Below, piece by piece: positions 19,099 through 49,415 of a DNA stretch of 64,000 bases. The DNA is taken from NCBI GenBank assembly GCA_045601365.1, contig JAZRZN010000096.1, forward strand, positions 9,809 to 73,808, in the 5' to 3' direction. Under the pieces are notes generated by a model. The model did not search any database. It had not been told where the DNA came from and saw only the letters and a program-made list of their open reading frames with translations. The first letter of the stretch is position 1; every line of letters begins with the position of its first letter. Origin of the DNA: Clostridia bacterium (GTDB lineage Bacteria > Bacillota > Clostridia > Christensenellales > QALW01). The position numbers and the translations under genes are program-made.

Positions 19099-19150
19099 TA
19101 ACAGGACTTGAAAAGGTCAAAGAAAGGAATTTTTTAAGAGGTGATCAAAC

Positions 19151-20776
19151 ATGAAAGTGAAAACATGGCTTGCAAATGAGATCAAGCTTACCAGCAGCAA
19201 GACTTACGAAAACCCGTTTGAAGACGTTGATGTTGACGTAACGTTCAAATCGGGCAGAACAAAGCTTACGCTTCCGGCATTCTGGGACGGCGGCAACACA
19301 TGGATAGTGCGTTTTGCGCTTCCCAAAGTCGGCGAATGGCAGTATTCAAGCGTATGCACAGACGAAAAGAATAAAGGGCTCACGGTATCGGGAACTGTTG
19401 AATGCGTTAAATACGACGGTGATCTTGATATATATAAGCACGGCTTCGTTAAGACCGCGCCGGACAAGCGTTACTTTATCTACGATGACGGTACGCCGTT
19501 CTTCTATCTCGGTGATACTCACTGGAATTTCTCGGAAGAAGAATTTGATGAACCCGGCGATCACGCAGGTGACCTGAAGTGCGATTCGCATTTCAAATAC
19601 ATCGTTGACAGAAGACGCGAGCAGGGGTTCAACGTTTATCAGTCAGAGCCTATCGGAGCAAAATACAAGATCGGTAACGGGTTGCATGAGGATGCAATAG
19701 AGGGCTTCCGCGATCTTGACAGACGCTTCAAATATATCGCAGACAAGGGCTTCGTGCATGCCAATGCACAGCTCATGTTCCCCCGCCAGTTCGTATATAT
19801 CGAGCGCTATAAGGACAAGGACTATATCAAGCGCCTTGCACGCTATTGGGCGGCACGTTACGCGGCATATCCCGTAATGTGGACACTCGGTCAGGAAGTC
19901 GATAACGATTTCTATTATACTCGCGGCGATCAGAGAGTTTTCCAGAAGGAAGACAACCCCTTCAAGATAATTGCCGCAGGGCTTCATGAAAACGATCCGT
20001 ATTCACATCCGCTTACGGGACACATGGAATTTACATCCATCCTGCCCGGACCTGCCGGTGACGGCACATGTCCCTCAACATCGGCATTCCGTGAGGTCGA
20101 AGGACACGATTGGTACGGCTACCAGTGGAGCAGAGGTCTTACAAGTCCCATTGATTACGGCTTTGCCAAGGACGGCTGGCTGAACGGTCAGGGCAAGGTG
20201 TGCATACTTTACGAATCGCGCTATGACGGTCTGTGGACAAAGCATTTCGGTGCGCGAAGCGAAGGCTGGCTCGCATTCCTTAACGGTCTTTACGGCTACG
20301 GCTACGGCGCGATAGATATCTGGCTGTATAAGAGTACATACGATATACACAGAGAATCCAACGACGGCGTTGATGTCATCACGCCCGAGGATAAGCAGAC
20401 ACCGTGGTCTGTAAGCGTCGAATACGAGACCGCCATTCAGATGGGCTACATGCGTTCGTTCTTTGAAAAGCTCGAATGGTGGAAGCTCATCCCGAGATTC
20501 GATTCGCCTGCGTTCTTTACAAGCGAAAAGGAAAACTATCACGCAATAGCGACCGACGAGCGTAATACGATAGTTATGTATTTCTGCAACTACAACGCAT
20601 TCGAAACCGGTATGCTCCGCAACCTTGAGCTTTGCACATATACATATCAGTGGTTCAATCCGAGAACCGGCGAATATTCCGCAAAACGCGAGTTCTTCCC
20701 CGACGTTCACCGCATGTACAAGATCGAGCAAAAGCCCGATAAATTCGACTGGGTACTGCTTGTTCAAAAGGCATGA
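19151..20776 (+). CDS. DUF5060 + DUF4038 (GH140 apiosidase-like) glycoside hydrolase family protein, no signal peptide
   Basis: 541 aa. Blocks LTLPAFWDGGNTWIVRFALP, LDIYKHGFV, DDGTPFFYLGDTHWN, SHFKYIVDRRREQGFNVYQSEP, YPVMWTLGQEVDND and HPLTGH. Paralogous to three other ORFs in the window. Confidence 0.8.
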   Translation: MKVKTWLANEIKLTSSKTYENPFEDVDVDVTFKSGRTKLTLPAFWDGGNTWIVRFALPKVGEWQYSSVCTDEKNKGLTVSGTVECVKYDGDLDIYKHGFVKTAPDKRYFIYDDGTPFFYLGDTHWNFSEEEFDEPGDHAGDLKCDSHFKYIVDRRREQGFNVYQSEPIGAKYKIGNGLHEDAIEGFRDLDRRFKYIADKGFVHANAQLMFPRQFVYIERYKDKDYIKRLARYWAARYAAYPVMWTLGQEVDNDFYYTRGDQRVFQKEDNPFKIIAAGLHENDPYSHPLTGHMEFTSILPGPAGDGTCPSTSAFREVEGHDWYGYQWSRGLTSPIDYGFAKDGWLNGQGKVCILYESRYDGLWTKHFGARSEGWLAFLNGLYGYGYGAIDIWLYKSTYDIHRESNDGVDVITPEDKQTPWSVSVEYETAIQMGYMRSFFEKLEWWKLIPRFDSPAFFTSEKENYHAIATDERNTIVMYFCNYNAFETGMLRNLELCTYTYQWFNPRTGEYSAKREFFPDVHRMYKIEQKPDKFDWVLLVQKA

Positions 20777-20806
20777 TATTCGGCAGAGCATGAAAACATA
20801 AATAAT

Positions 20807-20848
20807 GGGACTGTGGCGAAAGAAATTTTTCGTCGCAGTCCCTTTTTT
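20807..20848 (+). terminator. Rho-independent terminator (possibly bidirectional)
   Basis: GGGACTGTGGCGA (20807-20819) pairs with TCGTCGCAGTCCC (20830-20842), followed by TTTTTT (20843-20848). It lies between convergent genes. Confidence 0.75.
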
Positions 20849-20876
20849 AATACCATATTTCAAAACATGAATTATC

Positions 20877-21905
20877 TTAATAACATCTCGCACAAGGAGT
20901 GTATCCGTTTGATACAGCAGTTTCCAATGAAACCTGCATAGGATTTTTCATTCCGCTGCAGCTCGACTTTGAATGATATTTAGTTCCGCCATTTGTCGGA
21001 ACCCATACTAAATTACCTTTGGTTTCCTCTTTATTCGGAACGGTTACCCCCGATTTTTCTGTCGAATTGTCACCGTTTGTTTGAGTTTGAGATGATGCAC
21101 CTGTTTTATTGTCTTCAGACGATTCTACGTTATTTTGAGCGGTTTTACCGGGATCTTCTGTCGAATCGCCATCATTTGTTTGAGCTTGAGAGGAGTCATC
21201 TGTTTTTTTGATTTCAGGTGCCTCGGTTTTCATAGGCTTCACGCGATAATCAATTTGTATTTTGATATTCTTCTCCCATTGCTCACCTTTTTCAAAAGTA
21301 CGTATCTCACCATTCTCGCCTATGGCAATATTGACTACACTTCCTTCAAAAATATTATTTTCGTTATATTCAATTTCGCGTGCTACACAGGCAATATTAG
21401 TAAACCCGGCATCTTCGAACAGTTTCTTTACATCTTCACAGTGTTTCTCTAACAAGTTTGTCCATGTATCCGGCGTTTCTGCCATATCTGCCGATTTTTC
21501 ATCAATACCGTTGTCTTGGCTTTTGGAAACAAGTTCAATAAATTCACAAGGTATTTTCCAAGAACCTAATAAAAAAATTTTTGTTGGCTCTTCTGTAATG
21601 CGTACTACAACAGTATCACCTTGATTTACATCTATTTCTTCTTCGAATATAAAGTTAAGGTGTTCGCCCGCATGACAATTGATACCTAATGCAGAATCCG
21701 GTGCATATTCTTTCACAATAAATTGAATAAATTTTCCTTTTGTTTGTGTTTCATTGACAAGATCAGTTTCAAAAGTTGCCGCATCATCATAATCAACAGT
21801 ATAATCTGATATATCTCCTGATGTGTTATCCGTAATGACGCTATCGCATCCTGCAAACAAAAAAACGAGTGAAAGTATAATTATAAAAGATAAAATCTTT
21901 TTCAT
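20877..21905 (-). CDS. Hypothetical lipoprotein with a Ser/Thr/Asn-rich linker and a C-terminal Cys/His motif
   Basis: Start ATG 21905 (AGGAG 7 nt upstream). Lipobox LFAGC. C-terminus KYHSKSSCSGMKNP...GYTPCARCY (YH-x3-C...PC-x2-C). Visibly AT-richer than its neighbours. Confidence 0.65.
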   Translation of the reverse strand: MKKILSFIIILSLVFLFAGCDSVITDNTSGDISDYTVDYDDAATFETDLVNETQTKGKFIQFIVKEYAPDSALGINCHAGEHLNFIFEEEIDVNQGDTVVVRITEEPTKIFLLGSWKIPCEFIELVSKSQDNGIDEKSADMAETPDTWTNLLEKHCEDVKKLFEDAGFTNIACVAREIEYNENNIFEGSVVNIAIGENGEIRTFEKGEQWEKNIKIQIDYRVKPMKTEAPEIKKTDDSSQAQTNDGDSTEDPGKTAQNNVESSEDNKTGASSQTQTNGDNSTEKSGVTVPNKEETKGNLVWVPTNGGTKYHSKSSCSGMKNPMQVSLETAVSNGYTPCARCY

Positions 21906-22039
21906 GCTAAAGCTCCTGATGATTATCACTGTTTTTAATTATTTTAACATATATTGTCGGTTATTGCAACCGATAATGATCCCCCACACCTCTTTCGAAA
22001 GTGTTGTCTTTTTCACGCAAATCAAGAATCCGTTCATGA

Positions 22040-22600
22040 TCACATATTGCAATTATCTACCTGAAACACAAGAGTGATGACGGTCATATAAACGATGCCC
22101 CCGACACCAAATCGGGACGCCGTATCGCCGCCGCGCGAAAACTGCTTGACTACTGTAACAACCGCACGAAAAGTCTTGAGCTTGCCATTCGCACTAATGA
22201 GCAGGTGACCGAGTCCCGCACGCAGGACGAAATGATGCGCGATGAATTCTTCAAGGGGCTCAGCAAAGAGGAACTCGGCGCGTACATCAAAGGTTTGAAC
22301 CAGACTGCATTGCGCCCGAACAACGATCTGCAGACGGTCTCCAAGATAGGCAGTCAGATCATCGCCGCCACCTTATTCGCACAGAAAAACGGCATTACCG
22401 CAGAACAGCTCCACCTCGATCAGGATGACATCACTGCCGCAAAAGCGAATATCAATGCGGGCAGAAAAGCCAATGTCGAACTGCGAAAGCAAAAGGTAAA
22501 AAAGAACAACGCCGTGCAGGATCAAAACGCACCGAAAAAAGAGACAAAGAAAAAAGTGCAACCTAAAATCACAAAAAAAGCGATCATGTCGGAAAGATAA
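22040..22600 (+). pseudogene. Orphan open frame, possibly the 3' remnant of a truncated gene
   Basis: The ORF track calls 22205..22600 from a GTG start. The same frame stays open back to 22040 with no ATG and no RBS. The product has a Lys-rich tail. No family recognised. Confidence 0.3.
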
Positions 22601-22651
22601 AAAGCAAAGTGATATTATGATTTTTCATTCAAAAACATGTGCGAGCTTCAA

Positions 22652-23491
22652 TCAAAGATACTGCTTATCATAGTTTTCACAGTATTCTTTAGGCGTCAAT
22701 CCGTACATCTGACGGAACATCTTTATAAAATACGATACCGAATTGAAGCCCGACGCTTCCGCGACCTGTTTCACGGGTATTCTGCTTACGCGCAATAGCT
22801 TTTCGGCATAGATCAATCTGCGCATGTTTATATATTGTGGGAACGTCATATTCGTTGTTTTTTTCAGCATATCGGCAACATAATTTTGGCTTCTGCCCAC
22901 CTGCTGTGAAAGCGTATACATGGAAAAATACGAATCGTGCAGGTTTTCTTCTATGCAACGCATCATATTACGCACAAGGATTCCCTTTTCGTCACCTTCG
23001 TTTTTATCATGGCACTCATTTATCAAAAATACAATGAGATAATTTAGCAGTGCATATATCGCTACCTCCGCATACTCTTTTTTTCCGTAAAACGCATCAC
23101 TTATCATCTCGCAAACGCTTATAAAACGCCGGCGCTTATCATCGGAAAGCTGGCATTCGGGTTGTTTTTTGAACAGTGTCAGCTCTGTCAGAAGCTCCGT
23201 CTGCACCCAACGCTTATCGAATCGCAAAGTATAAAGCTCAACAAATTCATCAGCCTCGGTATGATATGTATGAAAATTATCCGGCATTATGAGAAACGCA
23301 TAGCCGCTTTTTGAATCATGCAGTACGCCATTAAGCTCGTGAACGGTATGCCCCGAAATGACAATGCTCATCTCGATATGCTTATGTGCATGTAAATTAT
23401 TCTGGAAGCTCTCAAGCTGACTGTCGATTTTTCTCACTATAGAAAAATCGCCGTCTTTCTTCGGGATATCCATGTACCTTAACTGTGGCAT
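22652..23491 (-). CDS. AraC family transcriptional regulator (cupin sensor + HTH)
   Basis: 279 aa. N-terminal cupin-like region (HKHIEMSIVISGH...). C-terminal AraC HTH (FPQYINMRRLIYAEKLL...ASGFNSVSYFIKMFRQMYGLTPKEY). Confidence 0.9.
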   Translation of the reverse strand: MPQLRYMDIPKKDGDFSIVRKIDSQLESFQNNLHAHKHIEMSIVISGHTVHELNGVLHDSKSGYAFLIMPDNFHTYHTEADEFVELYTLRFDKRWVQTELLTELTLFKKQPECQLSDDKRRRFISVCEMISDAFYGKKEYAEVAIYALLNYLIVFLINECHDKNEGDEKGILVRNMMRCIEENLHDSYFSMYTLSQQVGRSQNYVADMLKKTTNMTFPQYINMRRLIYAEKLLRVSRIPVKQVAEASGFNSVSYFIKMFRQMYGLTPKEYCENYDKQYL

Positions 23492-23612
23492 CTTACCGTC
23501 TCCTTTTCCGTATAATTTCTATCCTTACATCATTGTATCAAATCAAAAATACGATGTCAATATATCAAAGGCTTCCAAAAAAGCGATCCGTTTCCGAATC
23601 GCTTTTCACTAC

Positions 23613-26123
23613 TTAAATATCGGTTCTTTTCTTTGCGGTCACCGCAACAAATGCAAGTGCCGCAATGAACGCAAATATCGGAAGCATCATGAGCCCGTCA
23701 CCCGTGCCCTTGCTGTTGCCTGCCGCCGTAAGGATGATATCCTCGACATCAATGGACTCGATATCCTCGTACCCTGCCATATTTGAGAAGCATATCTGAA
23801 GCGATTTTATGTCTTTGATATCGTCTGCCGTTATCGTAACGGTCTTGGAGAACTCCTGCCACTGACCGTCAAAAACTATCTTACCGTCAGCAAGGCTGTT
23901 GGCAAGCTCGGTGTTGCCGCTCCAACGGAAGCGAAGATTTGCTTTCGATTCGCCGTCATCCGCCATTGTTCCGCGATACGAGAACGCTATCGTAAGCGTT
24001 ACCGATTTTGCTTTTCCCATCATATCGCGCACCGTGGAAAGTATTTCGACCTGCGGTGAATTGTAATTTGTAGTGAAGCCTGACGCAAAACGCGAGAACG
24101 TCTTTCCGTTTTCGGTCACTGTCTGCTTCTGCTGTGACTTATCCCAGCCTGTCCACGAAAGCTTTGCTTCGCTCGGTGCTTGTTCCACGGTCGCCGCGGA
24201 AAGCATCACATCCGTCAGCTCGATCGCGTCGATGTTTTCAAATCCGCTCATGCTTGAGAAGCATATGTATAAAGAAGTCAGATCCTTCACATCAGCATCT
24301 GTCAAGCTCACAGCCGCTTTTAATTCGTGCCACTGACCATCGAACAGGATAGTACCTGTGGCTATTTCATTTTTCAGTTGAGTTTCTCCGGTAAAGCGGA
24401 AACGCAGATTCGCCTTTGAAGCATCCGCTTCATCCTTCAGTGCGGCTCTGTACGAAAACTGCACGGTCATATCACCGTTTCCGTTTTTGAGCAGTTCTCT
24501 TACTTTATCAAGCACTTCGGCTTTCGGCGAATTATAGTTCGTTGTAAATCCGCCGCTCACGCGAGTAAAGCTCTTTCCGTTTTCGGTAACATTTGCAACA
24601 GTCTGGCTTTTATCCCAGCCCGTCCACGATGCCGCAGTCTGTTCCTGTTCCTGTTCTCCGCCCTCTTGCTTTTGAACAACCGTTATCGACGGCGTTTTGA
24701 CATCTATCGATGCCAGATTTTGATAATCCGATATTCCCGAGAAGCACATATACAGCGATGTCAGTTCTTTTATATCGTCTTTGGTGACGGTTACGGTTTT
24801 GTCAAGCGTCTGCCAAGTACCGTCGAACACAATCGAGCCTGTAGCAATTTCGTTTGCAAGAGCTGTGTTGCCCTCCCAACGAAAGCGGAAATTCGCCTTT
24901 GCCGCATCTATGCTTGCTTTCATCGTGCCGCGATATTCAAAACGGATATTGCAATCAATACTGCTCTTGTCCTGCATAAGTCCCGTCAGTGTAGAAAGCA
25001 CCTCATACTTGGGTGAATTGTAATTGCTTGCGAATACGGTAAATGTATCATATTCCCCGTTTTCGGTCTTTATCTGCGATTTATCCCACGGTGTCCACGC
25101 CGTCGGCGTTGTCGGCTCCGTCTGACCGCCCTGTGTACCGGATTCGGAAAGCGTTATTTCCGGCAGCTTAACGTCGATCGAATCAAGATTCTCATATCCG
25201 CTCATACCCGAGAAACATATATACAGCGATGTGAGCTGTGCGATATCCGTCTTTGTCACCGTGACGGTTTTCTCAAACGTACGCCATGTACCGTCAAAGG
25301 TCAGGCTGTTGCCCGCTATATCATTATTGAGCGAAGTATCTCCGCTCCAACGGAAGCGCAGGTTCGCTTTTGTTGCTTCCTGTCCAATTGCCATATTGCC
25401 GCGGTACTCAAGCTTTATCTTGATATCCGCGCTTTCATTTGCGCCGATAAGTGTTTTGACCTTATCAAGCACTTCATATGTCGGCGAATCGTAATTCGTC
25501 GGAAATCCCTTAAATGTACTGTAATCACCGTTGTCTATTTCGGTCTGCGATTTACTCCACGGTTTCCACACCGTGCCCGCCGCAGTTTGTATCGTCAGCG
25601 CAGGCAGTTTAACATCGACCGAATCAAGATTCTCATATCCGTTCATGCCCGAGAAGCATATATACAGCGATGTGAGCTGTGCGATATCCGTCTTTGTTAC
25701 CGTGACGGTTTTCTCAAACGTACGCCATGTGCCGTCAAAGGTCAGGCTGTTGCCCGCTATATCGTTATTGAGCAAAGTATCGCCGCTCCAACGGAAGCGA
25801 AGGTTCGCTTTTGTTGCTTCCTGTCCAATTGCCATATTGCCGCGGTATTCAAGCTTTATCTTGATATCCGCGCTTTCATTTGCGCCGATAAGTGTTTTGA
25901 CCTTATCAAGCACTTCACATTTCGGTGAATTATAGTTGGTAGCAAAATTTGTAAAACGGAAATAATTCCCGTCGGCGTCATTATATTCATTTTTTGTCTG
26001 CGAGCCATCCCATGTATTCCATGCAAGGCTGTCGGCACCCGCTCCTGCGATCACGCCGAATACCGCAAAAACCGATGCAAGCATCGCCATAACGGTAAGT
26101 ACAGCAATAAGTCTTTTCTTCAT
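23613..26123 (-). CDS. Secreted, C-terminally membrane-anchored protein with five tandem ~147-165 aa modules
   Basis: 836 aa. Signal peptide MKKRLIAVLTVMAMLASVFAVFGVIAGAGA. Five units each begin W-x2-W-[DS]-[KG]-SQ. Each contains NY[ND]SP, ANLRFRW and FDG-x-W, and ends LTSLY[IM]CFS. The C-terminus has a hydrophobic helix plus KKRTDI. Confidence 0.85.
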   Translation of the reverse strand: MKKRLIAVLTVMAMLASVFAVFGVIAGAGADSLAWNTWDGSQTKNEYNDADGNYFRFTNFATNYNSPKCEVLDKVKTLIGANESADIKIKLEYRGNMAIGQEATKANLRFRWSGDTLLNNDIAGNSLTFDGTWRTFEKTVTVTKTDIAQLTSLYICFSGMNGYENLDSVDVKLPALTIQTAAGTVWKPWSKSQTEIDNGDYSTFKGFPTNYDSPTYEVLDKVKTLIGANESADIKIKLEYRGNMAIGQEATKANLRFRWSGDTSLNNDIAGNSLTFDGTWRTFEKTVTVTKTDIAQLTSLYICFSGMSGYENLDSIDVKLPEITLSESGTQGGQTEPTTPTAWTPWDKSQIKTENGEYDTFTVFASNYNSPKYEVLSTLTGLMQDKSSIDCNIRFEYRGTMKASIDAAKANFRFRWEGNTALANEIATGSIVFDGTWQTLDKTVTVTKDDIKELTSLYMCFSGISDYQNLASIDVKTPSITVVQKQEGGEQEQEQTAASWTGWDKSQTVANVTENGKSFTRVSGGFTTNYNSPKAEVLDKVRELLKNGNGDMTVQFSYRAALKDEADASKANLRFRFTGETQLKNEIATGTILFDGQWHELKAAVSLTDADVKDLTSLYICFSSMSGFENIDAIELTDVMLSAATVEQAPSEAKLSWTGWDKSQQKQTVTENGKTFSRFASGFTTNYNSPQVEILSTVRDMMGKAKSVTLTIAFSYRGTMADDGESKANLRFRWSGNTELANSLADGKIVFDGQWQEFSKTVTITADDIKDIKSLQICFSNMAGYEDIESIDVEDIILTAAGNSKGTGDGLMMLPIFAFIAALAFVAVTAKKRTDI
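25170..25921 (-). repeat. Near-identical tandem duplication (441-bp period) inside the 836-aa gene
   Basis: About 310 bp at roughly 25170-25480 recur at 25611-25921 with only scattered substitutions. For example ATATACAGCGATGTGAGCTGTGCGATATCCGTCTTTGT occurs at 25219 and 25660. The offset is 441 nt, or 147 codons. Confidence 0.9.
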
Positions 26124-26146
26124 ATTTTATACTCTCCTTTTATTAT

Positions 26147-27859: not shown

Positions 27860-27890
27860 TTTTTCGCCTCCAAATCAAGTTTCTATATTA

Positions 27891-27919
27891 ATTGTATTTT
27901 ATTATTTATGTTTTTTCAA
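27891..27919 (-). promoter_or_regulatory. Candidate sigma-A-type promoter for the 27859 gene
   Basis: On the minus strand: TTGAAA (27919-27914), 17-nt spacer, TACAAT (27896-27891). The region is AT-rich, so a chance match is possible. Confidence 0.4.
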
Positions 27920-28110
27920 TAACAAAAAAACACAATTGACATAATATTTTCTTATAAAGCAGTTATTCGAGTTTTATTACACAGATATGTGATTCTTGTT
28001 CAAAATCCCGTTTATCGCACGCAATTATTACATAGCATATTGAACGTTTAACAGCGCAAAAATCTCCCGACGTTGCATTGCGCCGGGAGAGAAAAATTCT
28101 GTGCTGTTGC

Positions 28111-28458
28111 TCATTCACCGAAAACATCATCCGGCAGCTCTATGGGAGCATCGGGATCTGTTACCGACGAAGCAAAGTATTCATCGTAGCCTGCCCAGCC
28201 GTCGATGTATCTTGAAAGGATCATTCTGTCCTTGGGCGTTACCTTGCCGTTGCCGTCGATATCGGCGGCATCGGTGTCGATATCGGAATATTCATCCCAC
28301 CCGGCGATGAAACGTGCAAGTATCATTCTGTCAGCCGCTTCTACCTGTCCGTTTCCGTCAAGGTCACCGACATTGCCTGTGCCGCCCGCCGCAAATACAG
28401 ATGTGCCGAGGCACACGGTCAAAACGGTCAGCAATAAAATAAAAGCTATTTTTTTCAA
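28111..28458 (-). CDS. Stand-alone dockerin protein (signal peptide + one type-I-like dockerin)
   Basis: 115 aa with a TTG start. Signal peptide MKKIAFILLLTVLTVCLGTSVFA. Two Ca-binding dockerin segments, DLDGNGQVEAADRMILARFIAGW and DIDGNGKVTPKDRMILSRYIDGW. No catalytic or binding module. Confidence 0.75.
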   Translation of the reverse strand: MKKIAFILLLTVLTVCLGTSVFAAGGTGNVGDLDGNGQVEAADRMILARFIAGWDEYSDIDTDAADIDGNGKVTPKDRMILSRYIDGWAGYDEYFASSVTDPDAPIELPDDVFGE

Positions 28459-28658
28459 AAAGGTTCAACTCCTTTATACTTCATAATTCTGCCGGCAGAG
28501 CAATGTCTGCCGACAGATATATAATCCGCGATGCTAAAGAACAAAAAAAGTGCAAAAATAAAGAAAGGAAAACGCATCGCAAGGATTACCGTAAATAATG
28601 GGAACTTTTTTTCGGCACGCGCCCGAAAAGGCTTCTGCGTATTCGGACGCGTTCCGCG

Positions 28659-29405: not shown

Positions 29406-29428
29406 GTTTTACAATTTCCTCCAAACCG

Positions 29429-29596
29429 TTACTGACCTGAACCGACTTGAATGTTTATATCATCCTGAGGTGTCGATGAGCCTTCTTCAAAAGAATCAAT
29501 TGCATCAACAAGATCAATAGGACCGCTTGAAGTGATGATATCAGTATTTTCCAATTTTATTATTTCTACCTCAGGAGCTACGCATAACTTCTTCAT
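29429..29596 (-). CDS. Unannotated 55-codon ORF (acidic peptide), translationally coupled to the 787-aa gene
   Basis: Hand translation gives MKKLCVAPEVEIIKLENTDIITSSGPIDLVDAIDSFEEGSSTPQDDINIQVGSGQ*. The ATG shares its A with the upstream TAA (TAATG). GGGAG lies 9 nt upstream. It fills the otherwise empty 190-nt gap. It is below the 60-aa cutoff of the ORF track. Confidence 0.55.
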   Translation of the reverse strand: MKKLCVAPEVEIIKLENTDIITSSGPIDLVDAIDSFEEGSSTPQDDINIQVGSGQ

Positions 29597-31950: not shown

Positions 31951-32013
31951 TTTTATCAAAAACTCCTTCTTTATTTTTTAGGGGAAGACGGGCTTCCCCT
32001 GTTTTACAAAGCC

Positions 32014-35000
32014 TTAGTTTTTTGTTATGAGCAACGCCCAATCATTGCTGTCGGGCTTTGCCGTGAATTTATAAGATGATACATTTTCTATCGTCACTGT
32101 GCGCGAATCGTCAAACGCTCCCATGCGTGTATTGAACCAGCGTGCGGTATAAGTTGCATTTACATCAAGACCGCAAACAGTACCGAATTTTGTATTCTCC
32201 CTATAGGAATAGATAACTATCGCATCATCGCTTGCCGCACACGCCGAAAGCGTACCCGTTTCCGGGATGAAATGTGCGTTGCTGTCAAAATCGGGAACGA
32301 GCTTCCACCATTCGATCTGACTGAAGAAATTCTTCATGAATCCGCATTGCGACGATGAGCCTGCATTCACCGTTTCCGACCAATACTTCTGCTTATCGGC
32401 AACGGTTACCGTTGAACGACCGTCTATTCTTACCGACGGTGCATCCATATCGTAATCGGATTTGTAGTACCATATATCCTGACAGCCGTACCCATAGCCG
32501 TAGAAGCCGTTAAGATATGACAGCCAGCCCTGTACGCGTCCACCGAAGTTATCCGTCCAAAGATAAACATATCTGCCTTCGTAGTTTACCGCTATTTTGG
32601 ATGATTCCCAATAATCCTTTGCCATTTCGGTATAAGCCGTTTCGTTGCTCGCAAGATTCGGCTTCCACTGCGCGGCAAACCAATCGTGGCCGGTACGCGC
32701 CGTGACCTCATCCGAAAGGAATATCGACGCGCCGTTGTTGCTTGCATCGGCTACGGTTATGCCGCGTCCGGTAACAGTGGTGTTCGTCGCCCCCTCCTGA
32801 TGTCCTGTGAGCGGATGCGCATATGCATCGTATTTATGAACATATTCCGCTACCTTGAGCCACGGATTATCTGTATGATCCCAATCAGGTTCAGCATCGT
32901 TTTCGGCATAGCAGTCGTTATCGACCTCCTGCGCAAGCGTCCACATTACGGGATATGCGCCGAAGCGCGCCACCCAATAACGGGAGATCTTTTCAAGATA
33001 TGCCTCGTTCTGTGCAAGCTCCGCTGTGAGATTGTTTACAAAGAACAGCATCGCATTTGCGTGAACCATGCCCTTTTCGGCAATATACGCAAAATAATTA
33101 TCCGCTTCCTGCAAGCCTTCAAGATCGTACATATCAAAGCTTGCATCGTAAAGCCTGAATTTTCCGCCGAGAGGCTCACTCTGGTATACCGTAAAGCCCT
33201 GTGAAACGCGTCTGTCAACTATATATTTGAAATGTGAATCCGTATCAAGCGTTCCTGCATGATCGCCTGCGGAATCGAATTCCTCCGAAAGCATCGTCCA
33301 ATGCGTATCACCGAGGTAGAAGAACGGTGTTCCGTCGGCGTATGTGAAATACTTCTGCCCGTATGATGATGTAACGAAGCCGTGTTTATATATATCAAGA
33401 TTACCGGTGTACTCCGTTGCACCGACAGTGCCTGTAAGCCCGTCAAGCGTTTCATCCTGCGGACACTTGGTCATGTATTCCCACACGCCCTTTTCCGTAG
33501 GAGCGAAACGGACACACCAAACGTTATCACCGTTCCAGAATGCAGGAATGGTAAGCGTTGTGCCTGTAACCTTATTCGTAAATACGACATCCTGCATAAC
33601 ATCAAACGCTTTTTCCGGCGAAGCATACGATTTTCCGCTTACAAACGTTATTTCAGTCGCTTTCCACGTCTGTGCCATAAGGTTCACCGTGATTTCATCG
33701 GGTTCATAATCAGCCGCCGAACGTGCATAGTTGTAAAGTGCCTTTGCAAGTGCGTTGCTTGCGCCCTTGCGGCTTATATAATCGTAAGCACTGTAGGTAA
33801 CATAGCTTCCGTCGGCAAGCTCAAGCGTGTACTTATCCGCAAGCTGTGATATCGGGATATCACTGCTGTATACGCGAGTGTACTGCCCGTCATCCGCAAC
33901 GGTGTAAGGAACAAGAGTGCCGTTCTTGTACAATCCCGAAACAGCCGTGCCGTTCTTTACCTTGAACAGCAATCTTACCGTATCGCCAAGCTCAAGTGAT
34001 GCGCTGTAGATATCGCCGTGAGCCGATGTATCGGCTGTATATGCCGGAGCATTATACACAGCTGTCTTATTTGCTTCTACCCATGCCGCCGCGCTTGTAA
34101 CAAGCTCACTGCGTCCGACATATTTTTGCGCTTCCGCACCGTAAACAAGCATATCCGAAAGCAGCTTTATGAATGCGCTGTCACTGCTGTACTTTTGATA
34201 CATGGCATCGCAATACTCAAGCACGCTGTATTCGCATGAAGTAAACCTATATCCGTTCACATACAACTCCGCGGTAACGGTATCGCCCATGTGCTGAGGA
34301 TAGATATCCTCGCAGGTGAGCTTTGCAAGCTTTTTGATCTCGCCGGAAATGATAACATTACCTGCTTCCGCAGTTTCGTCAGCCGTAAGTTCCGTTCCGT
34401 TGCGGAAGAATTTCATTGAAAGCGTTGCATATTCTGCGGCATCCGCATAGAAGTTCATCGCTATGGATGAGCCTATTTCAAGGTTTGCACCCCTTAACCC
34501 GAACGGCTCTGTATGAACGCCCTTTATGTCAAATGATTCGACATACTGATTTATCGTACCGCTTTCGGTAAATAATCCGCTTAAGCACAAGCCCCATTTT
34601 GTCATTCCGCCTGAAAACTCGTCGTCGGAAAGCGGAATGATTATCTCCGCTGTATGCCAATCATCATCCTCGAACGGACGGTTGTGCATCTGATACTCAT
34701 TATTGAGTAATATGTTTCCGCTGTCGTTGCGGAACATATTGCCCGAGTACGACGCAAAGTCGCTTGCGGCGGCTCTTATTATCGCAGAACCGACAGAGCC
34801 CGTTTTAATAATGTTAGCTCTGTAATCGAATGTAACACGCGCCGCGCTCGCCCCGGATGCATACATCTCCTGCATTGCAGGAAGAATATCGCACTGCGGG
34901 AACGTATAGCTTGCAGTAACGTCGGTCACATGATAGTACACATCATGGTTTGCATCGCTCTCTACGGTCAATTGTTCACCGTGACCCGATGACTGCCACT

Positions 35001-37323
35001 TTAAGCCGTCGATAAGCTCATCGGTATTATAATTCGTTATCGTGGCATCCTTAAAACGCACTTCGGCGATCGAAGAAGCGTTTGTTATTGTACCGAAGCA
35101 GATATATTCCTTGTCGTTTATCGCTTCGGTTTTATCCGAAAATACCCAATTTTCGATATCGAGGACTGCAACCGCTTCATGCCAAATGCCGTCAAGCTTC
35201 AAGCCTTTGATATCACCCATGCGGTTTATTCCCGCACTGTCGCCGTCGCGGCGTGAACGGAAGCCGTTGCAGGAAGGTACATCCGCAGAATCGGTCTTTG
35301 GAATAACGCAGTATGCCAGCTTGATGTAGACCGTACCTGTTCCGCTGTCGCCTACTACATCCTTTATTGCATCATACATATAAAGCGACGCCGAGTAATA
35401 CTGACCGATATTTGTAAACGAATAACATACATCCCCGGTTATATCGTCGATTTTGATCTCCCGTGCCGTGCCGCTCGCGCTTTTGGATACCTGCCATTCA
35501 AGTCCGTTGACATCGCTTTCCGAAAGGATCTTTCTGACCGATGTATCCTTAAAATATACCGCCTGCAAGGATGCGGCATTAGTTATTGTGCCGAAGCAAA
35601 GATATTCTTTTTCGCCTATAGCCTCGCTTCTGCCCTGCACTACCCAATTATTGAGCTTGAATACCGCCGTTGCCGTATGCCATGCGCCGTCAAATTTAAC
35701 ACCGCCGATATCTCCCATACGGTTAAGCCCGCTCGAATCGTTATCGCGTCTTGCGCGGAAGCTGTTGCATGTAGGTGCAGCCGAATCCGCCTTGACCGTT
35801 CCGCGATATTTGAAGCTTATCTCGACCGCGCCCGTGCCGTTTTCGCCGAGTGCATCCTTGATGGCATCATATACATATAAGCCCGCAGAAGAATACTGTC
35901 CGATCGGTGAGAACGAATAGCACGCTTCGCCCGTAAGCTCGTCGCGGGCAACGGTTCTTACCGTAGAGCCGGTAGTTGATTTCCACTCAAGCCCGTTGAT
36001 ATCCGCCTCTGTATACGCTTTGGTTATCGCAGTGTCCTTGAAGCGAACCTCGGTCAGCGACGAAGCATTAGTTACCGTGCCGAAGCAAAGGAACTCTTTT
36101 TCGTTTATCGCTTCGCTTTTACCGCTTACCACCCAATTTTCGATATCAAAAGTCTTTGATACGGTATGCCAATCGCCATCGAATTTAACACCGCTTATAT
36201 CGCCTAAGCGGTTTGCGCCCGCGCCGTCGTTATCACGGCGCGCACGGAAGCTGTTGCATGTAGGCGTAGCCGCATTCGGATCAACGATACCGCGATATGT
36301 AACGCTGATAACAAATCTGCCGGTGCCGTCTTCTCCCACGGCATCCTTTATCGCATCAAAGAGATAAAGTCCTGCCGAATAATACTGCCCGACGGGTGAA
36401 AACGAATAACACTTATCACCTGTTTTTTCATCAACAACGATGCTTTTTACCGAATTACCGCCTATTGCCGAATGCCATACAAGACCGTTTACCTCGGTTG
36501 TGAACTCAGCTACGGCATCAAGCTTACCGCCTGTTATCGGCAATGCTTCCTGCGCATTTGTCGAAAACAGCTCGCCGTCTATGTACCAGCCCGCGAAACT
36601 GCAACCGATGTTCGGTGTAGCTGTAACAAATATCACTTCGCGATCTGCCTTTACATATTCGATGTTCTCCGAAGCGCTTACCGTACCTCGATCAGCCTTA
36701 TTTGCCCGTATGCTCAAATCTGCATATTCAAATATTTCTCCATTTGAACCGATACCTTTGTTCTCAATTGAGAACGATGTTGCCATATCGACATCTTCTA
36801 TTATAAGCTTTGCCGTCGTATCGGCCGTATAAGTTGCGCCGACCTTATAGAAGAAGCCGCCGTCGGCAACCCTGATAGTCCACTCACCGGTTCCCCATGT
36901 ATTGTTATACTCCGCAGGGATATTCGTAAAATTGAATTTTACGGTCTGCCCTGCCGGGACATCAAGGTGCTTCAATATTCCTCCTATTTCGTTATGCGCC
37001 CAACCGTAAACCTGCGTTCCCTCATTGAACGCCCAACCGATGCAAAGCTGAAGCTTCACCTTGACATCGAAATCGTTGGGATTTGTAATTGCGACCGTAT
37101 CACTGTAGGTCGTTCCGCCTGCATTGATCGTAGGCTTTTGAAGCTTAAGAACGGAAACGCTTTTGTAATTGCCCGCGCTTGAATAGATATCACTTCCCGA
37201 AACGATATCAAACATATACGCGACTCTTTGCGCACCGTCTGCCGATACCGTGAGATTCACTCCGGCAAAAACCGAAACGAACATCGCCAATATCAAAAGC
37301 CATGTAAATGCTCTCTTTTTCAT
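32014..37323 (-). CDS. 1769-aa secreted multidomain enzyme: N-terminal region, InlB-B-repeat-like segment, four module repeats, shared ~270-aa module, C-terminal DUF5060+DUF4038 (GH140-like) domain
   Basis: Signal peptide MKKRAFTWLLILAMFVSVFAG. ATPNIGCSFAGWYIDGELFS resembles a Listeria-Bacteroides repeat. Four repeats begin GL[VEK]W. The C-terminal ~560 aa carry LTIPAFWNGDNVWCVRFAP, LDIYKHGFV, ADGTPFFYLGDTHWT, SHFKYIVDRRVSQGFTVYQSEP, YPVMWTLAQEVDND and HPLTGH. Confidence 0.85.
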   Translation of the reverse strand: MKKRAFTWLLILAMFVSVFAGVNLTVSADGAQRVAYMFDIVSGSDIYSSAGNYKSVSVLKLQKPTINAGGTTYSDTVAITNPNDFDVKVKLQLCIGWAFNEGTQVYGWAHNEIGGILKHLDVPAGQTVKFNFTNIPAEYNNTWGTGEWTIRVADGGFFYKVGATYTADTTAKLIIEDVDMATSFSIENKGIGSNGEIFEYADLSIRANKADRGTVSASENIEYVKADREVIFVTATPNIGCSFAGWYIDGELFSTNAQEALPITGGKLDAVAEFTTEVNGLVWHSAIGGNSVKSIVVDEKTGDKCYSFSPVGQYYSAGLYLFDAIKDAVGEDGTGRFVISVTYRGIVDPNAATPTCNSFRARRDNDGAGANRLGDISGVKFDGDWHTVSKTFDIENWVVSGKSEAINEKEFLCFGTVTNASSLTEVRFKDTAITKAYTEADINGLEWKSTTGSTVRTVARDELTGEACYSFSPIGQYSSAGLYVYDAIKDALGENGTGAVEISFKYRGTVKADSAAPTCNSFRARRDNDSSGLNRMGDIGGVKFDGAWHTATAVFKLNNWVVQGRSEAIGEKEYLCFGTITNAASLQAVYFKDTSVRKILSESDVNGLEWQVSKSASGTAREIKIDDITGDVCYSFTNIGQYYSASLYMYDAIKDVVGDSGTGTVYIKLAYCVIPKTDSADVPSCNGFRSRRDGDSAGINRMGDIKGLKLDGIWHEAVAVLDIENWVFSDKTEAINDKEYICFGTITNASSIAEVRFKDATITNYNTDELIDGLKWQSSGHGEQLTVESDANHDVYYHVTDVTASYTFPQCDILPAMQEMYASGASAARVTFDYRANIIKTGSVGSAIIRAAASDFASYSGNMFRNDSGNILLNNEYQMHNRPFEDDDWHTAEIIIPLSDDEFSGGMTKWGLCLSGLFTESGTINQYVESFDIKGVHTEPFGLRGANLEIGSSIAMNFYADAAEYATLSMKFFRNGTELTADETAEAGNVIISGEIKKLAKLTCEDIYPQHMGDTVTAELYVNGYRFTSCEYSVLEYCDAMYQKYSSDSAFIKLLSDMLVYGAEAQKYVGRSELVTSAAAWVEANKTAVYNAPAYTADTSAHGDIYSASLELGDTVRLLFKVKNGTAVSGLYKNGTLVPYTVADDGQYTRVYSSDIPISQLADKYTLELADGSYVTYSAYDYISRKGASNALAKALYNYARSAADYEPDEITVNLMAQTWKATEITFVSGKSYASPEKAFDVMQDVVFTNKVTGTTLTIPAFWNGDNVWCVRFAPTEKGVWEYMTKCPQDETLDGLTGTVGATEYTGNLDIYKHGFVTSSYGQKYFTYADGTPFFYLGDTHWTMLSEEFDSAGDHAGTLDTDSHFKYIVDRRVSQGFTVYQSEPLGGKFRLYDASFDMYDLEGLQEADNYFAYIAEKGMVHANAMLFFVNNLTAELAQNEAYLEKISRYWVARFGAYPVMWTLAQEVDNDCYAENDAEPDWDHTDNPWLKVAEYVHKYDAYAHPLTGHQEGATNTTVTGRGITVADASNNGASIFLSDEVTARTGHDWFAAQWKPNLASNETAYTEMAKDYWESSKIAVNYEGRYVYLWTDNFGGRVQGWLSYLNGFYGYGYGCQDIWYYKSDYDMDAPSVRIDGRSTVTVADKQKYWSETVNAGSSSQCGFMKNFFSQIEWWKLVPDFDSNAHFIPETGTLSACAASDDAIVIYSYRENTKFGTVCGLDVNATYTARWFNTRMGAFDDSRTVTIENVSSYKFTAKPDSNDWALLITKN
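34511..36490 (-). repeat. Four tandem coding repeats (~486-498 bp period) inside the 1769-aa gene
   Basis: Repeat starts GLVWH (~36490), GLEWK (~35995), GLEWQ (~35507) and GLKWQ (~35013). The first three share CYSF[ST]..GQY.SA.LY.YDAIKD..G..GTG, CN[SG]FR[AS]RRD.D..G.NR.GDI.G.K.DG.WH and E.[FLI]CFGT[VI]TNA[AS]S. The fourth is divergent. Confidence 0.85.
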
Positions 37324-37336
37324 TTTTTCCTCCCCT

Positions 37337-39247
37337 TTATTTGTTTTTTGTAATCAACAGTACCCAATCGGCTTTATCGGGCTTCTGTTTTACATTATAA
37401 GAGTACTTGCCGTTCCCATCCTTTTGCGTGGGCTTGATCTCTTCCTTTTCGCCCGAAAACTTACCCGACCTCGGATCGAACCATTGCAATGTATATTCTG
37501 TCTTATCAAGTCCGCACACCGTACCGAATTTGGTATTTTCGTTATACGCATATACGATCATCACATCGTCAGCTATAGCCGCGCAAGAATACAGTGTGCC
37601 GCCGACCATCTTACCGAATCCGTTGTTTACGCCTTCATCACCGATAAAATGCTCTTTACTGTCGAAATCCGGCACGAGCCTCCACCAATCTAAGCCTTCA
37701 AGGAATTTTTTCATATACGCGCACTGGTAGCCGGATTCGAATTCTATCGCCTCCGACCATTTTTTCTGCTTATCCTTGACGGTTATGGTCGATCTGCCAT
37801 CCTGACGCACAGTGTCTTTCTCTGTATCGTAGGTCGAATTGTAATACCACAAATCTATACATCCATAGGCATAACCGGCGAAACCGTTGAGCATCGTTAC
37901 CCAACCGCGGACACGCGCACCGTAATCATCGGTCCAGAGGTTTACATACCTATCCTCATAATTCACGGCTACCTTGCCCGATTCCCAATAGTCTCTCGCG
38001 GAAACAAAGTTCGGCAAAATATCAACATTCTGCTTCCACTGTGCGCCAAACCAATCGTGTCCCGTGCGTGCCGTTACCTCATCTCCGAGGAAAACCGATA
38101 TGCCCTTGTTGCTCACCTTTGAGAAATCTTGACCCGCTACATTGTACCCTTCAAGCCCTTTTCCCGTAACAGTGGTATTGCTTGAACCTTCCTGATGCCC
38201 CGTAAGCGGATGCGCATACGCATCATACTTGTGGATATACGCGGCTACCTCTACCCACGGATTATTTGAATAATTCCACGATATAGTCGGATTGCTTTTA
38301 TTTTCGGCATAGAAATCGTTATCTATTTCCTGAGCAAGCGTCCACATTACGGGATATGCACCGAAGCGTGCCACCCAATAACGGGATATCGCCTCAAGAT
38401 AAGTAGTCTTTTTGACCATAAAGTCGTCAAGTGAAGAAGCAAAGAAGAACTCCGCATTTGCGTGAACCATACCTTTTTCGGCGATATACGCATAATACTT
38501 ATCAGCTTTCTTGAAGCCTTCCACCGTTCTCTCGCTGAATTTTCCTACTGAAAGATCGAACGGAGCCTGTATCGGTTCACTCTGATATACCGTATACCCC
38601 TGCTCTACGCGTTTGTCTACGATATATTTGAAATGGGATTCCGCACCGGTGTCTCCGGCAAATGCTCCGGGCGAATCAAATTCTTCGGCATACATCGTCC
38701 AATGTGTATCGCCGAGATAGAAGAACGGCGTGCCGTCGTCATACACAAAATACTTACTGCCGTTGGTTTTTACAAAGCCGTGTTTATAAAGTTCAAGTGT
38801 TCCTTTATATCCGTTTGCACCGACAGTGCCTTTTTTACCCGACAGCGAAGCATCCTTTTCGCACGATGTTTCATAATCCCATATTCCGTATTCCGTTGGA
38901 GCAAAACGCACCTTGAACGTATTATCTCCGTCATAAAATGCCGGAACGGTAAGCTTTGTTCCCGTCTCGCGGTTTGTAAATACGGCATCCATAACAAGAT
39001 ACAGTGCATCACTTGCTTCTATCGGGGTTTCACTCACAAAAGCAAGCTCACACATTTTCCACTGCTCTGTAAGAACATCGACCGTATCCGCAGGAATATC
39101 CTTGCCTACGGGTTTAACGGTATTACCTCCGCCGTCATCGCCGTTTATAGGAACTTCTTCAATAAAAAAGCTCATATCGCACGCCGAAAGCAAAAGTGTT
39201 AAAACAAGTAATACCGCGATACATGATTTTTTAATTATTCTTTTCAT
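37337..39247 (-). CDS. DUF5060 + DUF4038 (GH140-like) glycoside hydrolase family lipoprotein
   Basis: Start ATG 39247 lies 4 nt after the upstream stop. Lipobox LLLSAC. Blocks LTVPAFYDGDNTFKVRFAP, LELYKHGFV, DDGTPFFYLGDTHWT, SHFKYIVDKRVEQGYTVYQSEP, YPVMWTLAQEIDND and HPLTGH. The ORF-track start at 39367 would overlap the upstream gene. Confidence 0.8.
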   Translation of the reverse strand: MKRIIKKSCIAVLLVLTLLLSACDMSFFIEEVPINGDDGGGNTVKPVGKDIPADTVDVLTEQWKMCELAFVSETPIEASDALYLVMDAVFTNRETGTKLTVPAFYDGDNTFKVRFAPTEYGIWDYETSCEKDASLSGKKGTVGANGYKGTLELYKHGFVKTNGSKYFVYDDGTPFFYLGDTHWTMYAEEFDSPGAFAGDTGAESHFKYIVDKRVEQGYTVYQSEPIQAPFDLSVGKFSERTVEGFKKADKYYAYIAEKGMVHANAEFFFASSLDDFMVKKTTYLEAISRYWVARFGAYPVMWTLAQEIDNDFYAENKSNPTISWNYSNNPWVEVAAYIHKYDAYAHPLTGHQEGSSNTTVTGKGLEGYNVAGQDFSKVSNKGISVFLGDEVTARTGHDWFGAQWKQNVDILPNFVSARDYWESGKVAVNYEDRYVNLWTDDYGARVRGWVTMLNGFAGYAYGCIDLWYYNSTYDTEKDTVRQDGRSTITVKDKQKKWSEAIEFESGYQCAYMKKFLEGLDWWRLVPDFDSKEHFIGDEGVNNGFGKMVGGTLYSCAAIADDVMIVYAYNENTKFGTVCGLDKTEYTLQWFDPRSGKFSGEKEEIKPTQKDGNGKYSYNVKQKPDKADWVLLITKNK

Positions 39248-39251
39248 CGGA

Positions 39252-40208
39252 TCATTCCTTATTATTTTTCTCAAGCTGTGCAAAACGCTTTTTAACATAT
39301 ATGAAGCCGAACACTTCAGCCGCAATAAGCAGTACCACAAGCAATGCCATTCCGCAAAGTGCCACAACGCCCGCCGTGGTAAGCTTAAGCTTTACACTTC
39401 CCGTTGCACCCGGATCAGTGCCGTTCTTGTTGTCGGTATTATTCTTGCTTCCGCTATTTGCGGTCGCCGTAGGTGCATTACCCGAGGGAGCTTCGGTAGC
39501 CTGCGGTACAGCCGTAGCTTCCGGCGTCGGAGACGGTGTAGGTGTTACCGGCACGGGTGTCGCCTGCCCGTCATCATCTCCGGCATACACACCCGTGTTG
39601 CGGAACATCAGCTTTTCTATCGAGTCAAACCCCTTGCACGATGACAGACAGAAATTCCACTGATCGAATATCCCGTCGGAAAGGTCATCGGCAAACACAT
39701 CGAATGTAACCACGTAGTGTTCCCATGTCTCGTCAAGCTGGATCGGTGAAGCGAAGCCCGAACCGATTATATTTATCGCATCTATCTTTTTGAAAAGTGA
39801 ACCTTCGTAGAGATCGGCAAATGAAGTTGGATCCGAGGCATTGGCATCCGCGCTGATCTTTCCGGCACGCATTACCGGCGTTCCCATGAACGCTTTATCT
39901 TCATCGGATATCCCTGCCTTAAATTCAACGCGTGCATCGAACGAGATCGTTACGGTCGCATCATCCTGGTCGCCGATTACCTGTTTGATAGCTCCGTAAA
40001 CATCTATTTGAGGCGACATATATGCCGCATTCAATCCGCCGATGCTGTAAACGATCATACCGTCCGCATCCTTTGATTTATTGATATCGCCGTTTGCCGT
40101 CCCCTTTTTCCAATCGCCCGTAAGCAGATTTTCGACAGCAAATGTCTGCATACACAAAAGTGCAAATGCAATTACCAATACAGAAACAAGTGTTAACAGT
40201 TTTTTCAT
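39252..40208 (-). CDS. Secreted single-module protein with a Pro/Thr linker and a C-terminal membrane anchor
   Basis: 318 aa. Signal peptide, then one divergent copy of the module (ends WNFCLSSCKGFDSIEKLMF). Linker TPVPVTPTPSPTPEATAVPQATEAP. C-terminal hydrophobic helix plus KKRFAQLEK. GGAGGAA RBS. Confidence 0.8.
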   Translation of the reverse strand: MKKLLTLVSVLVIAFALLCMQTFAVENLLTGDWKKGTANGDINKSKDADGMIVYSIGGLNAAYMSPQIDVYGAIKQVIGDQDDATVTISFDARVEFKAGISDEDKAFMGTPVMRAGKISADANASDPTSFADLYEGSLFKKIDAINIIGSGFASPIQLDETWEHYVVTFDVFADDLSDGIFDQWNFCLSSCKGFDSIEKLMFRNTGVYAGDDDGQATPVPVTPTPSPTPEATAVPQATEAPSGNAPTATANSGSKNNTDNKNGTDPGATGSVKLKLTTAGVVALCGMALLVVLLIAAEVFGFIYVKKRFAQLEKNNKE

Positions 40209-40234
40209 AGAAATTCCTCCTTTTCTATACCAAT

Positions 40235-49403: not shown

Positions 49404-49415
49404 ATCCGCACCCCC

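Follow-up and report, generated by a model that had tools for sequence, protein, structure and literature searches.

What system, if any, do four divergent copies of an apiosidase-like enzyme form within 21.5 kb of a clostridial chromosome? The copies lie in a 64,000-nt stretch of contig JAZRZN010000096.1 (GCA_045601365.1, Clostridia bacterium), which we refer to as the window; all coordinates are window positions. The window is a Clostridia-type chromosome segment of low GC content (about 46%), in which the region between 19.0 and 40.6 kb has housekeeping genes on either side, tsaE/tsaB/rimI to the left and the genes for pyruvate phosphate dikinase, recO and era to the right. We consider it probable that this region is a discrete, exchangeable island for the capture and degradation of a glycan in a Gram-positive herbivore-gut bacterium, equipped with enzymes of a Firmicute-rich, clan-GH-A-type and presumably retaining 'GH140-like' clade (DUF5060 + PF13204 + PF12904). 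As its substrate, a glycan of plant origin is most likely.

Four paralogous enzymes share a Glu/Glu pair

An initial annotation, made from the letters alone, had proposed four paralogous open reading frames (ORFs) here. All four (A to D; Table 1) are present, aligning pairwise with 42–56% identity over 540–600 residues (BLASTP, E 1e-145 to 0), and every motif it had listed as shared forms an invariant block in the four-copy alignment. Over core stretches, the nucleotide identity of B, C and D is 65–88%, and by sequence comparison the paralogy of the four copies is far beyond chance. The match to DUF5060 and DUF4038, put forward at that stage as something to verify, is also clear: all four proteins carry PF13204 (Apiosidase-like catalytic domain, formerly DUF4038) with 107–121 bits (E 2.5e-30 to 7.9e-35; Pfam curated cut-off, 26.5 bits) and DUF5060 with 49–68 bits (E 1e-13 to 7e-19; cut-off, 27.2 bits). 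The PF12904 match is weaker than those of the other domains: it exceeds the cut-off in A and D but falls short of it in B and C. NCBIfam returned no family for any of the four enzymes, and the public names of proteins from this clade—which comprises 1464 protein clusters at E ≤ 1e-5—go no further than 'DUF4038/DUF5060 domain-containing protein'.

In an AlphaFold2 (AF2) model of A (pLDDT 86, pTM 0.90), an Ig-like domain precedes a (β/α)8 barrel and a β-sandwich. E249 comes directly after strand β4 and E355 closes β7, the arrangement of clan GH-A. These residues sit in the motifs TLGQEVDND and YE[GS]RY, respectively. The Glu/Glu pair is invariant in the four copies—so the catalytic pair whose presence the annotation had left to be checked is kept throughout—and in 120/120 best homologues. 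We conclude that the four enzymes are bona fide PF13204 members which, as a prediction, are very probably active retaining glycosidases. A and B are devoid of a signal peptide, and each of their ORFs begins at the first start codon following a stop.

The island enzymes differ from characterised apiosidases

Characterised PF13204 members are apiosidases only (bioRxiv 10.64898/2026.03.13.711244). The founding β-D-apiosidase of family GH140, BT1012 of Bacteroides thetaiotaomicron, consists of PF13204 and PF12904 only and has the proposed catalytic pair Asp187/Glu284 (PMC4032388). The assumption that DUF5060 followed by DUF4038 is the GH140 architecture was thus mistaken: BT1012 has no DUF5060, while all four island enzymes carry this extra domain at the N terminus. 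What they do share with GH140 is the fold, a (β/α)8 barrel and, behind it, a β-sandwich, with carboxylates occupying the positions of the BT1012 pair, as seen in the AF2 model and the alignment.

Searches of the PDB bear out the distance. With one paralogue as query, phmmer recovered the N-terminal domain of 4N0R and, weakly, 8T9W (E 1.4e-5), and did not match BT1012. A 20-sequence profile of the clade retrieved 8T9W (E 1.1e-17, covering the N-terminal strand and the C-terminal part only), 4N0R (3e-13), 4QFU (4e-10) and BT1012 (4.7e-7). The last of these matches spans barrel and β-sandwich and places E249 of A on the Asp of the BT1012 motif 'GGD' and E355 on the Glu of 'DGEP'; the alignment uses a different chain numbering, and we infer that the aligned residues are Asp187 and Glu284. 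Accordingly, the acid/base residue is Glu in the four paralogues and Asp in BT1012, Glu at this position having been reported for 17% of PF13204 members (PMC4032388). When the model of A was searched with Foldseek, 4N0R ranked first, followed by the GH5 β-mannanase ManDH5 and then the GH140 structures, at 13–18% identity throughout.

With BT1012 (PDB 3KZS/5MSY), from a polysaccharide utilisation locus (PUL) for rhamnogalacturonan II (RG-II), and with 8T9W, an apiosidase from a mangrove metagenome, the island enzymes thus have in common PF13204, the PF12904 β-sandwich and the placement of the carboxylates (after β4, end of β7); they differ from both by the low identity, a Glu acid/base and the Ig-like DUF5060. 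Moreover, BT1012 is one periplasmic enzyme whose PUL also encodes RG-II enzymes, whereas the island has predicted lipoprotein, secreted multidomain and cytoplasmic forms in a Gram-positive bacterium and no surrounding RG-II set. The best structural match, BVU_0362 of Phocaeicola (Bacteroides) vulgatus (PDB 4N0R; Foldseek E 5e-25), has the same layout of DUF5060 and TIM barrel and likewise a Glu at the acid/base position ('ANEWD'), at 16% identity to A. Since 4N0R is itself uncharacterised (a structural-genomics 'putative glycoside hydrolase'), no function can be transferred from it. ManDH5 of Dictyoglomus thermophilum (PDB 9GPA and related) has a similar three-domain shape (Foldseek E 2e-22, TM about 0.66), but its identity is 13% and the PDB searches did not match it at the sequence level; this is a resemblance of fold within clan GH-A only. 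Judged by the extra domain and the replacement of Asp by Glu, the four enzymes form a clade distinct from the characterised apiosidases, and these two differences together with the 13–18% identity mean that apiosidase activity is not transferable to them.

Binding-like modules and an unannotated domain accompany the enzymes

Self-comparison and an iterated hidden Markov model (HMM) revealed a module of ~155 aa that occurs in 13 copies in four secreted proteins of the island: five in an 836-aa protein (rep836), three in a 787-aa protein, four in the 1769-aa protein that also contains enzyme C, and one in a 318-aa protein (rep318). No Pfam family matched the 836-, 787- and 318-aa proteins, or the 1769-aa protein outside its enzyme unit, above the curated cut-offs, and a PDB profile search with the module returned nothing meaningful. 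In the AF2 model of rep318 (pLDDT block means 91–98 over aa 31–210), the module most resembles, by Foldseek, the carbohydrate-binding modules (CBMs) CBM22 4XUP (E 9e-5, TMt 0.60), CBM4-2 and CBM4 1GU3. On this model it would be a β-jelly-roll of CBM4/CBM22-like fold, with carbohydrate binding as its predicted role. CBM4/CBM22 (Pfam CBM_4_9; for instance the Xyn10C CBM22 4XUP and Rhodothermus CBM4-2, 2Y64) is the closest predicted fold, but the identity is ~10% and the module usually comes in another context, namely behind a signal peptide and ahead of a Pro/Thr linker and a C-terminal transmembrane anchor.

An exhaustive HMMER scan of 1.84 billion protein representatives yielded 126 cluster representatives that match the module at E ≤ 1e-3, as compared with two proteins from a word-index search with the module alignment; a genome search with a single module protein found only the near-identical relative. 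Approximately 82 of the 126 combine a signal peptide, the module and a C-terminal transmembrane helix, and most of them are ~300 aa long with a Pro/Thr linker and a basic tail, similar to rep318. Fusion to the same enzyme clade is seen in 8/126; in most database proteins with the module there is no fused enzyme of any kind. Other clade enzymes bear bona fide CBM_4_9 domains (P0083, P0110). Within rep836, modules 1 and 2 contain a 300-nt direct repeat of 96% identity (25162-25461 and 25603-25902). The repeat points to a recent duplication within the protein and is likely to have caused assembly breaks in related metagenome-assembled genomes (MAGs). The C-terminal anchors of rep836, rep318 and ~80 homologues have a sortase-like layout—a Gly/Ser/Thr-rich stretch, a hydrophobic helix and a Lys/Arg tail—that does not include an LPXTG-type motif.

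A second building block, an unannotated domain of ~285 aa that we term domain X, is common to the 787- and 1769-aa proteins. Elsewhere, it lies N-terminal to or inside clade enzymes (loci L042, L045, L051 and L052; proteins P0200 and P0209). As a side observation, a WbsX-like domain (PF14307) recurs with the enzyme clade (P0200, P0213; L164, L165, L168), either as several neighbouring genes or in fusions to modules and domain X, which in P0200 include the enzyme as well; our literature search found no characterised activity for it.

A conserved cassette in an island that was probably exchanged as a unit

Do enzymes and module proteins belong together? Two independent metagenome contigs (L169/L170) encode, in this order, a single-module transmembrane protein (32% identical to rep318), a lipoprotein enzyme (60% to D), a xylose-isomerase-like (XI-like) protein (48%) and a signal-less enzyme. 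The window has the order rep318, D, the 1769- and 787-aa proteins, XI-like, the dockerin ORF and B, and therefore reads as an expanded version of a conserved core cassette, so that synteny in relatives, which the initial annotation had suggested looking for, does exist. On a further contig (L171), an enzyme is followed by a 4-module transmembrane protein, resembling B and then rep836.

Fourfold expansion had been called unusual, yet relatives hold between 4 and at least 7 tandem copies. L080 has four, all cytoplasmic; L045 has four, three of which contain domain X; a contig of a sheep-gut Clostridia MAG carries at least 7 secreted copies in 13.5 kb (L021, 1-13548); and two overlapping loci on one 26.5-kb contig of a sheep-gut Clostridia MAG (L034 and L041; JAZNXV010000037.1) have 6 copies each. 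As the contigs of L021 and L034/L041 end inside the arrays, true copy numbers may be higher. The great majority of the relatives are MAGs recovered from goat, sheep, yak, buffalo and horse (rumen, colon and faeces), and more distant clade members occur in Paenibacillus, Cohnella and Bacteroidota. Multi-copy arrays as such are thus common in the lineage; what is new here are the candidate binding-module family, domain X and the recurring core cassette.

Comparison with a near relative, the MAG JAZRXI01 (loci L001 and L174), delimits the island. Its housekeeping flanks are 79–94% (about 85%) identical to those of the window at the nucleotide level, whereas A with its upstream spacer (19037-20776) shares 97% and the stretch 36745-40578 shares 97.4% nucleotide identity. 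Homology stops at 20774 and 40578, and different genes follow in the relative at both junctions. This contrast suggests that the island is a discrete unit that took part in recent recombination or horizontal exchange. Between A and its counterpart on L001 there are 50 nucleotide differences and no amino-acid difference, and between D and its counterpart on L174 there are 40 and nine, respectively; by this pattern of substitution, both enzymes are under purifying selection. The '100%' protein identity might have placed the window in the JAZRXI01 lineage, a possibility ruled out by the 79–94% identity of the flanks. The two being different lineages, an extra paralogue on L013 belongs to JAZRXI01 and not necessarily to the window genome. 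An ORF beside the relative's island copy (L174:249-908), considered as a recombinase C terminus, had no Pfam match, and we claim no mobility gene.

A proposed model of glycan capture and degradation

Taken as one system, the island would work as follows. Membrane-anchored rep318 (one module) and rep836 (five), together with the secreted 3-module protein, would hold a glycan at the cell surface, where the 1769-aa secreted enzyme (four modules, domain X and C) and lipoprotein D would cut it extracellularly. Fragments would then be imported by a transporter encoded elsewhere, the signal-less enzymes A and B would complete hydrolysis in the cytoplasm, the XI-like TIM protein would convert the released sugar or an intermediate, and the AraC regulator would control island expression. 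As the paralogues are only 42–56% identical and relatives carry long tandem arrays, several linkage specificities rather than one are suggested. The supporting genes named by the initial annotation—interleaved surface proteins, a TIM-barrel sugar isomerase, a dockerin protein and an AraC regulator—are all confirmed, and AraC genes also adjoin clade members in L004, L012, L078 and L080.

Several observations weigh against this model. ORF and Pfam scans found no transporter gene within 19037-40578, which leaves the supply of substrate to A and B unexplained, and a link of the island to the ABC cluster at 53680-60592 was rejected, as none of 80 loci around homologues of its 1098-aa protein contains the enzyme. 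The genomic contexts of the clade elsewhere, set out below, are heterogeneous and let no single substrate emerge. Support for the binding role is modest: the module's Foldseek E-values range from 9e-5 to 1e-3, and 2/12 modules tested gave CBM_4_9 matches, both sub-threshold (best E 7e-4). Domain X had no PDB sequence match and Pfam noise only (best E 0.04), so that it stays uninterpreted, like the N-terminal 250 aa of the 1769-aa protein. Lastly, promoter and terminator calls are consensus matches only, and promoter-like sites—upstream of AraC (23532-23560, the best), B (27891-27919) and rep318 (40235-40263)—are no commoner than in shuffled sequence. Read with this limit, the layout is probably not one operon, with candidate units formed by A alone (plus strand, own terminator), by the genes from rep318 to the dockerin ORF, by B with rep836, and by AraC; the second of these probably ends at the dockerin ORF, because a strong terminator-like hairpin lies directly past it (28063..28090).

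The missing transporter also bears on nomenclature. A Gram-positive PUL (gpPUL) has been defined as enzyme plus transporter plus regulator (PMC5320581), and the island, with four predicted glycoside hydrolases (GHs) and an AraC regulator but no transport system, fails that definition. Its initial description as a Gram-positive PUL equivalent therefore holds as far as the enzymes, the regulator and the conservation of the unit on independent contigs are concerned, and not for transport. Like the gpPULs of Roseburia and Eubacterium rectale (PMC5320581), the island has clustered degradative enzymes with a regulator and both surface CBM-bearing and cytoplasmic enzymes. Unlike them, it has one enzyme family in several copies, and glycan binding, which in gpPULs falls to the transporter's solute-binding protein, is predicted to fall to membrane-anchored poly-module proteins.

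The nearest ABC permeases (48366-50309 and 55501-57296) are part of a separate conserved module. Its eight genes (48366-60592, minus strand) encode a 1098-aa protein, two permeases, an NHL-repeat protein, Yip1, a DUF5696 protein (907 aa) and two more permeases; a Paenibacillus homologue of the 1098-aa binding protein contains SBP_bac_1. Gene order is kept in 71–80 of 80 Firmicute loci (Clostridia MAGs, Paenibacillus and Cohnella), where the module stands by itself; it appears to import and process sugars with two pairs of permeases and to be independent of the island. In one case, Paenibacillus mendelii (L078), a clade enzyme adjoins a homologue of the 1098-aa protein.

Substrate and alternative readings

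What might the glycan be? Clade members elsewhere adjoin three GH106 and five WbsX-like genes (L164), GH78 and WbsX-like genes (L165), a SusC/D PUL beside an L-rhamnose catabolic cluster (L168), GH92 and GH141-like genes (L163, L166) or GH2 (L167). Near the island itself, 5 kb to its right and between era and a radical-SAM (YgiQ-type) gene, lies a signal-less GH28 gene (polygalacturonase/rhamnogalacturonase-like; 45115-46377, minus strand). Rhamnosidase contexts and GH28 are compatible with pectic structures containing rhamnose, apiose and galacturonic acid (Rha-Api-GalA), a reading weakened by the finding that none of the other RG-II families occurs within the island.

These contexts bear on the alternative that fares best, in which all four enzymes share the β-D-apiosidase activity of BT1012, the island harvests RG-II side-chain stubs, apiogalacturonan or apiosides such as apiin, and the TIM protein acts on apiose. 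It gains from the membership of the enzymes in PF13204, from the rhamnosidase and L-rhamnose neighbourhoods, which echo the Rha-Api linkage of BT1001/BT1012, from GH28 close by, and from the D-apiose isomerase step of the known pathway (PMC13001218). Yet 4N0R and a GH5 mannanase are structurally closer to the island enzymes than BT1012 and 8T9W are, the acid/base residue differs, and one type of linkage creates no obvious need for 4 or more divergent paralogues, or for 7 or more in relatives. Genes for an apulose kinase or transketolase are not present either, and the XI-like family carries a generic name only ('sugar phosphate isomerase/epimerase'), NCBIfam giving a weak, below-cut-off IolE match and no equivalog. 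β-Apiosidase activity is thus possible, with nothing specific in its support, and we consider it unlikely.

Less probable still is that the cytoplasmic part constitutes an oxidoreductive sugar or glycoside route made up of a GFO/IDH/MocA oxidoreductase and the XI-like protein, with the GH140-like enzymes supplying or acting on unusual glycosides and the key chemistry being downstream oxidation and isomerisation or elimination. XI-like homologues do adjoin GFO/IDH/MocA genes in four loci (L172, L173, L029 and L078), AraC-GFO-ThuA genes stand a few kb upstream of the four tandem paralogues of L080 with one gene between, and the window has a GFO gene (7488-8756) whose orthologue lies ~2 kb from a clade enzyme in L044. 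However, the enrichment is weak—GFO genes in 10/79 enzyme-centred against 3/80 control loci, XI-like genes in 4/79 against 0/80—and both genes are missing from most loci. In the window, moreover, 20 kb that include housekeeping genes separate the GFO gene from the XI-like gene.

That the cluster is no system at all, its enzymes being neighbours that act independently and its repeat proteins general adhesins or cell-envelope proteins, could be argued from the several predicted transcription units with A on the opposite strand, from A-type orthologues standing alone among housekeeping genes (L081), from the lack of a transporter and from the many unfused module proteins, but is very improbable given the cassette order kept on L169/L170, the repeated fusion of modules and domain X to the same enzyme clade, and sampled island stretches that are highly identical to the relative between diverged flanks.

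Returning to the capture-and-degradation island, we tentatively propose, as a possible rather than a probable extension, that it is the type example of a non-apiosidase DUF5060 + PF13204 Glu/Glu clade that has expanded in herbivore guts, with an undescribed CBM family and a new ~285-aa domain, and with membrane-anchored poly-module proteins in place of SusD-like or solute-binding proteins. If true, this would add a CBM family and glycosidase specificities to those known, and would account for the tandem arrays, with 4 to at least 7 copies, of Clostridia in the rumen and hindgut. GH140/PF13204 is known from two characterised apiosidases, whereas the island clade is abundant, chiefly among uncultured Clostridia from the guts of ruminants and equines; its tandem amplification and abundance suggest a substantial unassigned capacity for fibre degradation. 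The label 'pectin/RG-II apiosidase' tends to be given to any PF13204 match (for example, PMC8637618); it is unsafe for this clade, and identification of the substrate would improve the annotation of herbivore-gut metagenomes. Two soluble-looking cytoplasmic enzymes, one lipoprotein, one multidomain enzyme, 13 module copies and a TIM-barrel partner offer an experimental entry point.

Gene map and neighbouring genes

Table 1. Features of the glycan island, in window coordinates.
Feature	Position	Strand	Basis
Island extent, 21.5 kb	19037..40578		Ends of ~97% identity stretches vs related MAG; core flanks 79–94% identical
Paralogue A, signal-less, 541 aa: DUF5060 + PF13204 (β/α)8 + C-terminal β-sandwich; predicted E249 acid/base, E355 nucleophile	19151..20776	+	Pfam, AF2, Foldseek
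Terminator-like hairpin after A: 16-bp stem + T-run	20807..20842	+	Consensus pattern match
Lipoprotein (LFAGC lipobox), low-complexity linker, Cys-rich C-terminal motif	20877..21929	-	Translation
AraC-family regulator: cupin sensor + HTH_18	22652..23491	-	Pfam
rep836, 836-aa surface protein: signal peptide, 5 CBM4/22-like modules (23694-26039), C-terminal transmembrane helix + KKR tail	23613..26123	-	Module HMM
Paralogue B, signal-less GH140-like enzyme, 570 aa; E261/E376	26147..27859	-	Pfam, alignment
Terminator-like hairpin just past dockerin ORF: 10 bp, 7 GC, T-run	28063..28090	-	Consensus pattern match
115-aa signal peptide + type I dockerin mini-protein; TTG start, AAGGAG ribosome-binding site	28111..28458	-	Dockerin_1 E 9.6e-12
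XI-like TIM-barrel protein, cytoplasmic, PF01261, 248 aa	28659..29405	-	Pfam
787-aa secreted protein: signal peptide, 3 CBM4/22-like modules (30424-31860), domain X (29596-30423)	29596..31959	-	Self-comparison, module HMM
1769-aa secreted protein, whole gene	32014..37323	-	ORF
Paralogue C: GH140-like catalytic unit, aa ~1203-1769 (~567 codons) of 1769-aa protein; E1465/E1581	32014..33717	-	Pfam, alignment
Domain X of 1769-aa protein, aa 935-1202	33718..34521	-	Comparison with 787-aa protein
Four CBM4/22-like modules of 1769-aa protein, aa 277-934	34522..36495	-	Module HMM
Paralogue D, lipoprotein GH140-like enzyme, 636 aa; signal LLSAC; E307/E431	37337..39247	-	Pfam, translation
rep318, 318-aa surface protein: signal peptide, one CBM4/22-like module (39561-40127), Pro/Thr linker, C-terminal transmembrane helix + basic tail	39252..40208	-	AF2, Foldseek

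Two of the remaining island genes deserve comment. The lipoprotein encoded between A and AraC had no Pfam or NCBIfam match; it has a Ser/Thr/Asn-rich linker and the C-terminal motif GGTKYHSKSSCSGMKNP...GYTPCARCY, and its membership in the system is uncertain. The dockerin ORF stands alone: between its signal peptide and an acidic tail of 30 aa it encodes a dockerin, and neither a catalytic nor a binding domain is present. Its two Ca-binding repeats are those of a type I dockerin. Dockerins were found neither on the four enzymes nor on the repeat proteins, and no ORF scanned in the window matched a cohesin. Rfam returned no RNA family for the window, and no tRNA genes were found in it.

A second dockerin protein is encoded outside the island (4065-5021, minus strand; 318 aa, Dockerin_1 E 2.5e-10). 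Beside it (4065-7238, minus strand) are a 535-aa protein without a family match and an overlapping ORF with a weak GLUG-motif match below the per-domain threshold. The organism thus seems to use cohesin-dockerin assembly.

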